A stretch of 64,000 bases of DNA. Origin: Rhynchobatus australiae (lineage: Eukaryota). The translations under genes were made by a program, and so were the position numbers. The stretch is from positions 23,733,942 through 23,797,941 of the forward strand of contig JAUZTB010000087.1 of assembly GCA_034780895.1 (NCBI GenBank), in the 5' to 3' direction. Below, piece by piece: positions 12,021 to 27,202 of the stretch. How positions within the stretch are numbered: the stretch's first letter is position 1; each line of letters opens with the position of its first letter. Under the pieces are notes generated by a model. It saw only the letters and a list, made by a program, of their open reading frames with translations, did no database searches and had not been told where the DNA came from.

Positions 12021-13047
12021 CATTAATATTCAGTAATTTAAGTATTGGATAATTTACATTATTTTAAATTAATTGACCAATATTTGAATNNNNNNNNNNN
12101 NNNNNNNNNNNNNTAAATTTTAAGAATTTTATATTTTTACTTGTTTCATTGTTTTATTAATAGTTTGTGAATGTTTCTGAAAGTCGTGGACATTCAAATT
12201 TTTCAGCTGGCTAAATATGGTGGTGTGAGTTAGCTAGCTGTCAAGGTTTCCATTCAACTGTTTTGTATACAAGGCTTGTTCTGGCCCAGGCTTGTGATGT
12301 CATCGTGTTATTCAAGACTCTGCAATTTAGGCTTGGGAACACTCTGGGCAACCATCTGACAGCAAAGGATCTGAAAAAGACCAAGTTTGTTCTTACCACA
12401 CATGTCAATGGCTTGTGCAGGCAACTCGCTGCTGGTAGCAGACTCTGTGTCACTGAAACTGAAAGATAGAGGCTGCAAGTTTTCATAACTTGAGAAGTTA
12501 AATTGAACAATGCTACAAGTCCAGTTTAAGAGCAATTATACCATATCTATTGATCGAATGCAAGCCACACACAAAATATCATACTGCTTGCTGCATATCC
12601 AGAATTTCCAGCCACTGGTGAGCCACTCACTCTCATCATCGACTTACACAAAAAGGTACAGACTTGCAGAGCAGATGATACACACTGTGACTGCAGTGAT
12701 GGAAGGAGTGAATATTTAGGATGGTGGAAAGGGTGCCAATCAAGTGGGCTGCTGTGATGTTTATAATTACCTTTATTATTCCATTGTNNNNNNNNNNNNN
12801 NNNNNNNNNNNNNNNNNNNNNNNNNNNNNNNNNNNNNNNNNNNAATTGAGAGGGTAGTTAAGTGAATGAGTCAAGGGATACATCTAGGCCACGCTTGGGA
12901 AGGATTTTCTTCCTTTAAGAGCCAGATGAATTTTAATGAGAACTTGATAGTTCCATGGTCAACAATGCTGGTACTAGCATTTTATTCTAGATTTACTTAA
13001 TAAGTTATTTTAATTCTCCAGCTGCCATGTTGGAATTCAAACTCATA

Positions 13048-13339
13048 CAGCACGGTAGCATAGCAGTTAGCATAACGCTATTACAGCACCAGTGACCCTG
13101 GATCAATTCCAGCCGCTGTCTGTAAGGAGTTTGTACGTTCTCCCTGTGACTGAGTGGGTTTCCTCCAGGTGCTCTGGTTTCCTCCCACATCCCAAAGATA
13201 TATGGGTTAGGAGTTGTGGGCTTGCTATGCTAGGACACATGTGGGCTGCCCCCAGAACACTCTATGTAAAGATGCATTTCACTGTGTGTTTCGATGTACA
13301 TGTGACTAATAAAGAAATAAAATCTTATCTTATCTTATC
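13048..13339 (+). mobile_element. Full-length V-SINE with Rex1/Babar-like tail and (ATCTT)n end
   Basis: tRNA-like head with degenerate A/B boxes, V-domain, tail ...TTTCACTGTGTGTTTCGATGTACATGTGACTAATAAAG...(ATCTT)3. Confidence 0.85.
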
Positions 13340-13508
13340 ATGCTGTCGAATTTGTTGAATGATATAGGAAATACCCTCTGTGCATCCACCCTGTCAAGAC
13401 CCCTCAGGATCTTATACAATTGTTGCCTCTCATTCTTCTAAATTCCAGAAGAAAGAAGACTGACCTGCCCAACCATTCCTCAAAAGACAACCTTCCCATT
13501 CCAGGTAT

Positions 13509-13807
13509 TAGATAAGATGAAACATCTTTATTCGTCATGCGTACATCGAAACACACAGTGAAATGCATCTTTCGCATAGAGTGTTCTGGGGGCAGCCCGC
13601 AAGTGTCACCACACTTCCGGTGCTAACATAGCATGCCCACAACTCCTAACCTGTACGTCTTTGGAATGTGGGAGGAAACCAGAGCACCTGGAGGAAACCC
13701 ATGCTGACACAGGGAGAATGTACAAACTCCTTACAGGCAGTAGCTGGAATTGAACCTGGGTCGCTGGTGCTGTAATAGCATTACACTAACCACTACAGTA
13801 CTGTGCC
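13509..13807 (-). mobile_element. Full-length V-SINE, same family, inverted
   Basis: Its reverse complement aligns along the whole length with 13048-13339. Confidence 0.85.
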
Positions 13808-14189
13808 TGACCTAGTAAATCTCATTCTAGGCATTAGTCTAATAAACCTCCATCTCCTTGCTGTTCCAATGAAGCTGAAGAAGCAGTGCCTTGCGTTTCA
13901 AGTGGCAACAGTGCAGCCTTCTGGATTTAGCAACACGTTCCAACAGTCAGCACTTCCACCATGTTTGGTTAAGCTATTCAGCAGTATTTTTTTCACACAA
14001 TTCTGATCCCTCTGCTTACACTTTCTGGAGATTGAGCTCACAATTAGCATGCTACCCCTTTATGGCATCACCCACTGTGTCTTGGATTGCTGCTGCCTTC
14101 ATCCAATCTCAGCTTCTTTTCTCTTCTCCTTCCTACATTGAACCTCTTGCTCCCTTACCAACAATCAGCGCGTGCTGAATCTTGTCTAA

Positions 14190-18950: not shown

Positions 18951-19859
18951 TGTCCATTCTGCCAAGGTCTCCCCTCATCCTCCATTGCTGAAGGTTCTGA
19001 TCCTGTTGAATTCAATGGGTACTGGTTGCTCCTGATACTTCATCTTGGGATCCTTTACACTGAACCCTAGTACTGCCATGGGACCCTTTGACCACTGAGG
19101 AGCAAGAGAAACCTGGATTCTGCCCTCTGTCTGTTGACGGTTCTCCAACCCCAAACTGACTCGATTGCGCTTTCTACTGATGCTACCTGAGCTGCTGAGT
19201 GCTTCCTGTATTTTGATGCTGTCCTCCCCTGACATCCACATCAACAGGCTTCCTGCTGAGGTCATCGGGTAATCATCAGGAAGATCTGCCTGGTGTCCAC
19301 CTTCCAAAAATGGGAAACTGAAGCCAACTGCGCGCTCCTCCAATTGCCCATCTGGGATCAGATAACCCAGATCGGATGTGGAATCAACGATTCACTGTTA
19401 TTGGGACATCAAGGGAACCAGTAGCTTACATTTTCCCATCAGTGCTATTTTAATGTCAGCAGCAACCCCTGTATTTCAAAAGGTTTACCACAGGCATTAA
19501 AATAATCCTGGCATATATTTAATTTTAAACCAGTTGCAGCTGCTGTTAAACTAACATGGATGCTAAAGCGTGTATTACCTTCTTTAAAATAAACACAATT
19601 TAATGTGTTTAAATCTCTGTCAGTCTTACAGAGTATACATGCCAATCAGGAATATTCCCCTGAAGCTGATCCTGTGCACGGTTGCAGGATGTGCTGCTGT
19701 GCAGAAACATTTATACTTCCAGGAGCGATATGTCCGGAAAACAGCCAGTTATGTTGTATAATTTGAAGCAAGTGAGTCTGCAATGTAAAGGCCGTGTACT
19801 AAACCCTGTCCTGAGGCCTTTTAATTCCTTATCATTCAGTCTGGTAATGCTAAATTTTT

Positions 19860-20860
19860 AAGGATCCACTCATTCTGCGACGTGAGCAATGCAATCTCAC
19901 ATCGCAACCATGCACAGCTACACAAACATACAAGGAAATGAACTTTCTGCTGCAGGGGGGTCACCCCGACTTTTCCGGTCACGTGGGAACGTGGCATTTC
20001 CAAATTTGGTCACACAAAGGCCGGGGCACCGCCAGATCAAAGAGAACCGCCGTCTGCAGCTTTCCAATCCCATCCTTGTGGTTAAAAACATGACAACAAC
20101 GCGATCGTTTTCTCACGCCACACGCAATCTCCATCTCCCCCGCAGTCCTATACATTCCATACTAAATGCAGCACAATCAGCTCCTTTATTCCGATGGAGC
20201 CCTGCAATTAGATTCGTGCAACCCCCCCCCCCCTCCCCATGTTTAGGAAGGGGAGTGGGAAACTAATGTAGGAAAGGCGTGAAGCGGCGGCTACATGAAA
20301 GCGGTCTCAGCCTTCACATTAATGAGACCCTTTGTTTCCTGGCTGCGCTGCAACAGGTTCCTTCACATTTGCCAACGAGGGATTTTTTTCTCTCTGTTCC
20401 ATGTGGGAGGGCTGGAAATCTCAGTTTCTGTGACTCCCCTGTGCGAGCAAAAAAAAAGATTTACAGAGGAATTAATGTTACACAGAAATGCCAATCGCAG
20501 TGTTAACTTTCTCTCCCTTGATGAACGATACATCTAAAGATTACATTTTTCCACGACATTATGTAAGAGAGTCCCAGGCATGTGTATCTCCGGGCCGACT
20601 CCTTCCTGCGGGTTCAATCCCGGTTATAGTGTTAAAAGTGATCTTACAAACTGTGAGGAATCAGGGTATTTAGGGGCAAAGGAAACTTTTCTGACTCAGT
20701 CGATTCTATATGCAAACTTTTAAAGAAAATCATGTTTTTACAAACAAACTCCCGTCTGGAAGCAAAGTGATGGGAAACGCCATATTTTAAAATCTTTGGA
20801 TATAACAAAAAGGTAATTGTTGGCAGTGGGGGGTTTCGAATCTCATTCGGCGTTGGACTA
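19860..20860. promoter_or_regulatory. Candidate upstream enhancer (RBPJ/TCF/RUNX/ETS cluster)
   Basis: Local CpG enrichment in non-repeat DNA. CGTGGGAA 19982-19989, TTCTCACG 20110-20117 and GTGGGAAA 20255-20262 (RBPJ); AGATCAAAG 20034-20042 (TCF); TGTGGTT 20077-20083 (RUNX); TTTCCGGT near 19972 (ETS). Confidence 0.6.
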
Positions 20861-21002
20861 GGTTAAAGGCTATTTGCTATTATTTCCAGAGTTTAATGCA
20901 CACCATCGAATAGAACTTTTCCTGTGCACTGCCAAATTCTAAGTTTGTGATTTCTGGAAGTAAAAGTATTTTATTATTTAAAGAATCTGGAGAATTATCT
21001 CT

Positions 21003-21190
21003 GTATCTTGGCCAATTGTTCAACCAATCATTCATTAAAGGAGATTATCTGCTCATTATCATTATTGTTGTTAGTGGTCTTGCCACACACAAATTGGCTG
21101 CAGGTTATCTGTACTACAGTATTGACTACATATCGCAACGTTATCCCGAGGTTATGAACGGCACTGTACAAATACAAGTGCTATTTTAAA
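21003..21190 (+). mobile_element. DeuSINE/SacSINE1-like SINE 3' half
   Basis: TTGGCCAAT...GATTATCTGCTCATTATC...CAAATTGGCTGC...GAGGTTATGAACGGCACTGTACAAATACAAGT resembles the Deu-domain and tail; a related copy lies at 49445-49640. Confidence 0.6.
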
Positions 21191-21639
21191 GAAAATAATG
21201 GGCCATTACAATTGTTGAATCAGCTAGCATTTTTGTCAACTACAGGAGCTTAAAATAGTATTAAGAATCTTTCTGGGTGTCCATAAAAGTGTCCATCTCT
21301 GCATGTGTATGAGAATATATATGCAAATATGTGTGTGCCCCTGTTTGTGTCCATCTGCGTTTGAATGTGGAATTTATATTTGAATGTGTCTGACCTGTGC
21401 TTATATGTGGTGTGTCTGTGTGTCAGTCTTTGCTTTGTATATTAATGCTTTGTTTCAGTCTATCTGTACAAATCACTGTGTATAAATCTGTGTATACTTA
21501 AGTCTCTAGCTATGATTCCATTTGAATGTCTAGGTTGGTGTAACAGCACATGTGCAAGTTTCTATATAAAATGTGAATTAGTGTGGATGAGTCAGTTGTG
21601 TACTTGTGTTTGTGTTGTGTTAATTAGTGGGATTGTGAT

Positions 21640-26399: not shown

Positions 26400-27007
26400 G
26401 TATACTCGTTATTTGTAAGGGGACGCGTGGGTTCACTGGTTTTCGCCAAGCCTATGAATATGGGATTTAAAAACAGCTGCATGTAAAGATTTTCCTTTAA
26501 GGGAGGGAGGCTGGTTGCAAGGGTAGGGACTTATTAGGAAAATGATGATGATTTTAAAGTGTTTGGTTGATGAAACAATTGAATTCCCCCTCCCGTCAAT
26601 GAAGCTGTCAATCAAAAGGCGGTGCCCTTTGATGTTGAGGAGCCGTCGCCTTGGTCCTAAACACAAACTGCTTCAGATCTTTCTTCTCTCCCTGCTGCCG
26701 TACTTTCACTGAGATTTCTTCCTCGCTCTTTCCCTCTCGCTCCAACTGATTGCAACTTTACATTGCATTCCCCAGGCCGGCTGTCTGCAACAAGCGGCGC
26801 AAGTCCCGGGCAGTAACTTTGTACAGTGGAAAGTGAAGGAGTGGGAGAGAGGTGGGGTGGGGGGAGGGGGGAAAAGAGGANNNNNNNNNNNNNNNNNNNN
26901 NNNNNNNNNNNNNNNNNNNNNNNNNNNNNNNNNNNNNNNNNNNNNNNNNNNNNNNNNNNNNNNNNNNNNNNNNNNNNNNNAAAAGAGGAGAAAACATCCC
27001 AAGGAAA
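26400..27007 (+). promoter_or_regulatory. TCF7 proximal promoter / 5' UTR with Wnt-response element
   Basis: CpG-enriched and repeat-free. CCTTTGATGT at 26626-26635 (TCF/LEF consensus); CTGTCAATCA at 26605-26614 (reverse of PBX-MEIS TGATTGACAG); G-tracts at 26843-26871. The TSS cannot be placed. Confidence 0.7.
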
Positions 27008-27202
27008 ATGCCGCAGCTGAACAGCGGTGGAGGGGATGATCTGGGGGCGAACGATGAAATGATCTCCTTTAAAGACGAAGGGGAGCAAGAGGAGAAAATC
27101 TCCGAGAACGCTCTCACCGAGAGGGACTTGGCAGACGTGAAGTCATCGCTAGTCAACGAGTCGGAGACTAACCAGAACGCGAATCCTGCATCCGATCCAG
27201 AG
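27008..27202 (+). CDS. TCF7: TCF/LEF transcription factor (most likely TCF7), coding exon 1, beta-catenin-binding domain
   Basis: ATG at 27008 gives [65 protein letters not shown] (195 nt, 65 codons), the canonical TCF/LEF N-terminus. Ends at donor GAG|GTGAGT, phase 0. Confidence 0.95.

Follow-up and report, generated by a model that had tools for sequence, protein, structure and literature searches.

The TCF7 locus and the region upstream of it

The window, by which we mean the whole 64,000-nucleotide stretch of Rhynchobatus australiae DNA that was analysed, contains the first coding exon of a TCF/LEF gene and a non-coding candidate enhancer upstream of it. On the contig (C87), a VDAC gene on the minus strand at 23.535 Mb, the TCF gene on the plus strand at 23.761 Mb and SKP1 on the minus strand at 23.957 Mb follow one another. 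This VDAC-TCF-SKP1 order, which we take to match that around human and other mammalian TCF7, identifies the linked gene as TCF7. The genome contains four TCF/LEF genes, the other three on C17, C64 and C75, and the identification is to be read alongside the 90% identity of exon 1 to that of the C17 paralog and the presence of a further SKP1 gene and a further VDAC gene, at 0.3 and 0.55 Mb respectively from two of the other paralogs. The second SKP1-family gene, at C64:130.137 Mb, lies 0.3 Mb from a LEF1-like gene and is probably a retained duplicate. Two C-clamp exons are predicted for TCF7, one with CRARF and one with RKKKCIRY, ~170 and 181 kb past the ATG; for TCF7L2, two C-clamp first exons have been described (PMC9303524). 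The features of the region are as follows, in window coordinates.

19177-19550, no strand: block A, a second conserved block, single copy (22 differences in organism F and 23 in organism H over ~374 positions; 1 genome match)
19635-20184, plus: segment also carried as a passenger in two pogo/Tigger elements (the C118 and C135 copies)
19823-20490, no strand: block B, conserved non-coding candidate enhancer (on a collinear contig in organisms F and H)
19973-19989, ETS minus and RBPJ plus: ETS core, E-box and RBPJ site 1 together (motif scan)
19973-19978, minus: ETS core CCGGAA
19980-19985: E-box CACGTG (motif scan)
19982-19989, plus: RBPJ site 1, CGTGGGAA (motif scan)
20028-20051, minus: Wnt response element (WRE) CTTTGATC at 20035-20042 with its helpers (motif scan; definitions from PMC4267635)
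20028-20033 and 20046-20051: helper sites ACCGCC (consensus RCCGCC), 1 and 3 bases from the WRE
20034-20042: TCF site AGATCAAAG (motif scan)
20077-20083, plus: RUNX site TGTGGTT (motif scan)
20110-20117, minus: RBPJ site 2, CGTGAGAA (motif scan)
20110-20135, minus: RBPJ site 2 plus the 16 bases next to it (20120-20135), similar to the flank of the mouse Notch site (comparison by eye)
20255-20261, plus: RBPJ site 3, the 7-mer GTGGGAA (motif scan; within the block covered in organisms F and H)
26588-26719, plus: TCF7 promoter module with its own WRE and helper at 26618-26634 (nhmmer E 1.4e-5)
27008-27202, plus: TCF7 coding exon 1, beta-catenin-binding domain (PF08347, E 1.8e-25)

Block B (19823-20490) is the candidate enhancer. 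It falls inside the ~210 kb interval between VDAC and TCF7, and the TCF7 ATG at 27008 lies 7.0 kb away, so the placement 7 kb upstream of TCF7 in an earlier sequence-only reading holds and gene order supports the name of the gene. The motif scan found RBPJ sites 1 and 2, the TCF site, both ACCGCC words, the RUNX site and the E-box exactly where that reading had put them. Its count of three RBPJ sites is right in number, but the third is a 7-mer, one base shorter than had been proposed, and, being preceded by A, is weaker than sites 1 and 2; the proposed ETS site is likewise present, but its flank is not optimal. RBPJ site 2 is 26 bases away from the RUNX motif and 67 away from the TCF motif. 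GATA motifs, at chance level here, are absent from the 300-base core and occur once at the edge of block B (19829) and once in block A.

The proposed CpG enrichment is also borne out, with observed/expected ratios of 0.56-0.74 across 19501-21000 compared to mostly 0.05-0.4 elsewhere; the GC content of this CpG-retaining stretch is 0.38-0.49. Elsewhere in the window, an inverted pair of common-repeat copies, 170 bases apart, was seen at 13042-13337 and 13505-13814.

Conservation of the element among relatives

Part of the region 19600-20700 was present in nine organisms, of which C, D, F and H were aligned at a floor of 80% identity; the shares of the stretch found in B, E, G and I are 0.61, 0.13, 0.12 and 0.06. 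The distant relatives F and H each have one collinear contig across 18941-21122, in which block B differs from the window at ~6% of positions (43/668 in F and 40/668 in H; 27 gap letters), while the alignable flanks differ at ~13% (62/468 in F and 63/471 in H; Fisher P 1.6e-4 and 2.4e-5 against block B, a comparison that excludes block A and in which the block limits were drawn from the same data as were tested). Three intervening stretches, including 19551-19822 and 20491-20755, fall below the 80% floor in both organisms. In the closer organism C, 2 of the 35 differences listed fall in 19823-20237 (P 0.0003), a value that becomes P 0.07 (8/41) in the worst case in which 6 further differences are counted inside that interval. 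These divergence data indicate that block B is under constraint.

Block A, further upstream, contains TGGGAA at 19311 (plus) and 19433 (minus), AGATAA at 19360, a RUNX core at 19487 and E-boxes at 19531 and 19537; it shares its first 40 bases with a high-copy repeat.

Block B as a whole is conserved in F and H; RBPJ site 1 is broken in two of the four aligned relatives. Among the 40 of 166 differences listed, from which the states of motif letters were taken, a G to A change at 19987 breaks this site in organisms C and D, with F and H sharing the letter of the window. At 20028 organisms D, F and H have G in place of A, which still fits the helper consensus and is neutral to the reading.

Two other readings of the element were considered and rejected. 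A 126-codon frame, which runs across the element and is open in the C118 copy as well, was discarded as a coding remnant, as its differences are spread evenly over codon positions (23, 21 and 27 of 86 each); it gave no protein homolog among 11 candidates of 69-221 residues and no Pfam match. A structured RNA was discarded as well, with no Rfam matches at E up to 1 and a fold z of -2.0 against 20 shuffles.

Motif excess over chance and the WRE-helper arrangement

The density of motifs was compared with 5000 dinucleotide shuffles of 19823-20490, a null model applied post hoc to a motif set picked after the sequence had been seen. Under it, three RBPJ 7-mers have P 0.002, the joint occurrence of three RBPJ motifs with TCF and RUNX has P 0.0006, and the WRE with helpers on both sides, the strongest single signal, has P 0.0002. 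Single RUNX (P 0.54), ETS (0.47) and GATA (0.38) motifs in block B are at chance level. The dense module described from the sequence thus stands for RBPJ and for TCF with its helpers, which exceed the shuffles, but not for RUNX and ETS taken singly.

All four motif classes, under strict patterns, occur together in just one 300-base window of the 64 kb, that of the candidate. Among all 300-base windows from the VDAC gene into TCF7 (264 kb; 226,577 non-N bases) the candidate cluster ranks second, behind one with five RUNX words, and other windows come near; among the top 15 it alone has retained CpG (15 compared to at most 5 in the others). A separate 300-base window at C87 ~23,712,070 (L065), 48.9 kb upstream of the ATG, has three RBPJ and two RUNX motifs and is CpG-poor; it competes with the candidate as a possible equivalent of the mouse -31 kb enhancer discussed below.

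Elements used by C-clamp forms of TCF consist of the WRE CTTTGWWS and a helper RCCGCC, 1-11 bases apart (Hoverter et al. 2014, PMC4267635). In the ~640 kb examined, four WREs have a helper within 17 bases, and all four lie beside a TCF/LEF gene: one in the candidate element, one in the promoter of TCF7 and one close to the start of each of two paralogs. The 160 kb scanned downstream contained no further case. Given the use of such sites by C-clamp isoforms (PMC4267635), this distribution points to TCF feedback. The TCF7 promoter module has a homologue in the promoter of the C17 (TCF7L2-like) paralog (L068:879-1008), both with WRE and helper, and to judge from this homology the module has apparently been kept since the vertebrate genome duplications. 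The candidate element was also considered as a genome-duplication copy shared with the other TCF genes and rejected, as the 60 kb upstream of each of the three (C17, C64 and C75) contained no match to the core. Another WRE flanked by helpers on both sides was seen at L079:5182 (C64), ~4.3 kb upstream of the LEF1-like ATG, and its region gave no significant alignment with the window element.

CpG retention spans ~1.5 kb, and each of the remaining three WRE-plus-helper sites lies at or near the start of a TCF/LEF gene. Both observations would also suit an alternative promoter free of methylation, or a non-coding first exon further upstream, belonging either to TCF7 or to a non-coding RNA. We regard this as improbable, since 19000-21200 is without a TATA word or a consensus splice donor, a separate promoter module exists at 26588-26719, and the GC content is low for a reading of this kind.

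Copies of the element carried by a DNA transposon

A genome search with the window core returned two diverged matches away from TCF genes, at C118:7.39 Mb and at C135:54.29 Mb, the latter in an LRRFIP intron. The window element is not a high-copy repeat, and both other copies, at 71-80% identity, lie inside the ends of a DNA transposon. The description of the region as non-repeat DNA needs qualification, in that 19635-20184 recurs in these two transposon-borne copies.

The terminal word of the transposon family gave 169 matches compared to 13 for a control, and TA precedes 17 of the 30 family ends that were fetched. As for the passenger copies themselves, TA is found before the left end at C135, and the other three ends are decayed. 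A DDE_1 (PF03184) transposase relic (E 2.2e-10) was present in a 2.5 kb family member (L146), and we take the family to be pogo/Tigger on the basis of DDE_1, the TA flanks and a CAG start. Two pattern searches for more copies, whose counts are lower bounds, returned the three known copies only or five extras at control level that did not extend.

Profiles of the transposon ends, which exclude C118 and C135 though they were partly built from loci reached through them, scored 128 and 22.9 bits at the two ends of the C118 copy and 42 and 42 bits at C135, compared to at most 1.1 bits in the surroundings of the window core. Nor was the core present at any of the 34 further family loci that were examined, a set made up of 30 of the 169 matches, read ~1.5 kb inward, and 5 longer stretches, minus C118 itself; one of these loci is a long member that bears a transposase. 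Both results argue against an old insertion of a loaded transposon at TCF7, later exapted as an enhancer, in which the window copy would not be the donor. The presence of two of the three copies inside transposon ends, and the decay that the ends of a very old insertion can undergo, favour such an origin; nevertheless, the profile finds nothing near the window core even though 20184-20490, the place expected for the right end, is conserved, and we consider the insertion distinctly improbable. Most likely, on the comparison of the copies, ~550 bases were captured in a single event from the TCF7 element by an old pogo/Tigger transposon, which then carried them to two places where they decayed. 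A match to a repeat family, named earlier as a result that would speak against the enhancer, was found only in reverse, as the transposon appears to have copied the element and not to have supplied it. Organism F contains a joint with the C135-type deletion, that is, one passenger-type copy, and the capture therefore likely predates that split.

Two further assignments at the passenger loci were rejected: the high-copy sequence next to the C118 core was inserted separately and does not belong to the copy, and a long hairpin at C135 reduces to pairing of the terminal repeats alone, self-alignment being no better than for shuffles. No convincing Pfam match to a gene was obtained within ~130 kb on each side of the C118 copy (frames of at least 62-75 codons). 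Other observations from these loci are a nested element inside the C118 transposon copy, 228 bases long and bounded by 28-base inverted ends (L005:5540-5767), a CpG-rich, promoter-like stretch following a CA repeat 32 kb from the C118 passenger copy (L096:3100-3800), and the old pogo/Tigger family itself, with MITEs of 220-250 bases and the decayed transposase-bearing member (L146:3221-5770, L115-L144). Mid-sized family members of 390-1250 bases may carry further passengers.

Slow evolution of the TCF7 copy

The decayed passenger copies are a built-in outgroup for judging constraint on the TCF7 copy. Over the 133 columns that the copies share, 4 changes are private to the window copy, compared to 21 in C118 and 18 in C135 (P 0.0007 and 0.003), so the window copy has evolved about five times more slowly than the passengers. 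CpGs number 8 in the window copy and 2 and 1 in the passenger copies; none of 13 aligned window CpGs is kept in C118, where 7 of the 13 read TG or CA, and in this comparison the helpers and the E-box look to have been lost from the passenger copies by CpG decay. The RUNX core GTGGTT, the best-kept motif, is present in all three copies, and the C118 copy retains TCAAAG from the TCF site as well as TTCTCA from RBPJ site 2. These remnants suggest that the arrangement of sites probably predates the capture and that the TCF7 copy alone has been maintained.

This rate difference bears on whether the cluster is a chance assembly of motifs in neutrally evolving, locally unmethylated DNA. Such a reading can draw on the post hoc nature of the motif tests, on the higher-ranking window in 264 kb and the others near it, and on the slower mutation of CpG in unmethylated DNA. 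Divergence is, however, two- to three-fold lower across species and the relative-rate gap is five-fold, differences that the protection of CpG by itself would probably not produce, and we hold a chance cluster to be very improbable.

A candidate enhancer proposed to integrate Notch and TCF inputs

Taken as sequence, 19823-20490 is a genuine and conserved regulatory candidate of a familiar type, and it probably works as an enhancer of TCF7. The three RBPJ sites with RUNX and ETS point to early T-lineage use, RBPJ, RUNX and ETS being a haematopoietic combination. In the proposed mechanism, RUNX and ETS factors would open the element, RBPJ together with the Notch intracellular domain would switch TCF7 on from two or three sites, and TCF7 protein that includes the C-clamp exons would bind the helper-flanked TCF site and so sustain its own expression. 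We give about even chances to this reading, in which the candidate would integrate Notch input and TCF feedback as an enhancer of TCF7 whose most probable place of action is the early progenitors of the T lineage.

TCF7 is among the targets of Wnt signalling, and fish express it in their fin folds. The element could be a Wnt/beta-catenin feedback enhancer with Notch as a co-input, active in embryonic tissues (for example tail bud, fin fold or gut) and not in lymphoid progenitors. Helper sites placed around a TCF site are a layout typical of Wnt feedback elements. This reading would fit the WRE and its two helpers as the strongest single signal (P 0.0002), the restriction of WRE-plus-helper sites in ~640 kb to four places at TCF/LEF genes, and the use of helper sites by C-clamp isoforms at Wnt targets, as described in PMC4267635. 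It accounts less well for the haematopoietic combination (three RBPJ sites, RUNX and ETS), for the RUNX core as the best-kept motif across copies, and for the mouse element known as region 3, which is likewise bound by TCF-1 and whose Notch-site flank matches the window at 12 of 16 positions. We consider an exclusively embryonic Wnt role rather unlikely. The lymphoid and Wnt-feedback uses are not exclusive, and were the element to serve Wnt feedback instead, it would be an ordinary conserved enhancer.

Comparison with known systems

The passenger copies resemble the multicopy Pack-TIRs of animals, of which 4 were reported among 281 unique cases (Tan et al. 2021, PMC8277862), in having host DNA between TIR-transposon ends, two copies on other scaffolds, a parental copy without ends and a GC-richer donor. 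They differ from the cases described there in being very old (71-80% identity compared to the 90% cut-off of that paper), in having a non-coding candidate regulatory element as cargo and in the passenger-type copy found also in organism F; neither 'shark' nor 'enhancer' occurs in the main text of that paper.

Compared with the C-clamp WREs as described in PMC4267635, the candidate matches the WRE consensus exactly and has two perfect helper words, 1 and 3 bases away from it, and the linked TCF7 has predicted C-clamp exons. Unlike those elements, it is set among RBPJ, RUNX and ETS motifs and is a distal candidate element.

The first step of T-cell specification in the mouse, in which Notch turns on Tcf7, goes through one 1 kb element, region 3 of the -31 kb Tcf7 enhancer (mm10 chr11:52,313,783-52,314,831; Harly et al. 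2020, PMC7099406). Like region 3 as reported, the candidate is upstream of Tcf7 and has RBPJ, RUNX and TCF motifs within ~100 bases. The right arm of the 57-base mouse repair oligonucleotide (PMC7099406) matches window 20120-20135, two bases from RBPJ site 2, at 12 of 16 positions in a comparison made by eye; by the same means its left arm gave no convincing match at the window. This match, the one sequence link to the mouse, is a lead and falls short of proof. With a window 16-mer of equal composition as proxy, the chance of such a match is 0.002 under genome composition, 0.007 under local composition and 0.056 over all 98 RBPJ 7-mers of the 264 kb. Block A, a second conserved block further out with RBPJ-type words, may be the analogue of the Lmo2/RBPJ site reported at -35 kb in the mouse (PMC9582733). 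The candidate differs from region 3 in its distance (-7 kb compared to -31 kb), in its three RBPJ motifs and helpers on both sides of the TCF site, and in the 300-base core being free of GATA motifs, of which region 3 as described has several. The broken RBPJ site 1 in two relatives and the competing cluster 48.9 kb upstream of the ATG also weigh against the T-lineage and orthology readings. On these sequence likenesses, orthology of the candidate to the mouse -31 kb enhancer is a tentative proposal that falls short of an even chance.

A literature search at the level of titles and the beginnings of abstracts returned nothing on a cartilaginous-fish TCF7 enhancer. At stake is the age of the Notch-to-TCF7 wiring, which could be a mammalian feature or could date to the origin of adaptive immunity in jawed vertebrates, and a conserved candidate of 670 bases with defined sites makes this age testable. 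Were the orthology true, the mouse Notch site would survive in this fish as RBPJ site 2, the transposon-borne copies would preserve a record of the ancestral element, and the direct Notch-RUNX-TCF wiring of T-cell specification would be as old as the jawed vertebrates.
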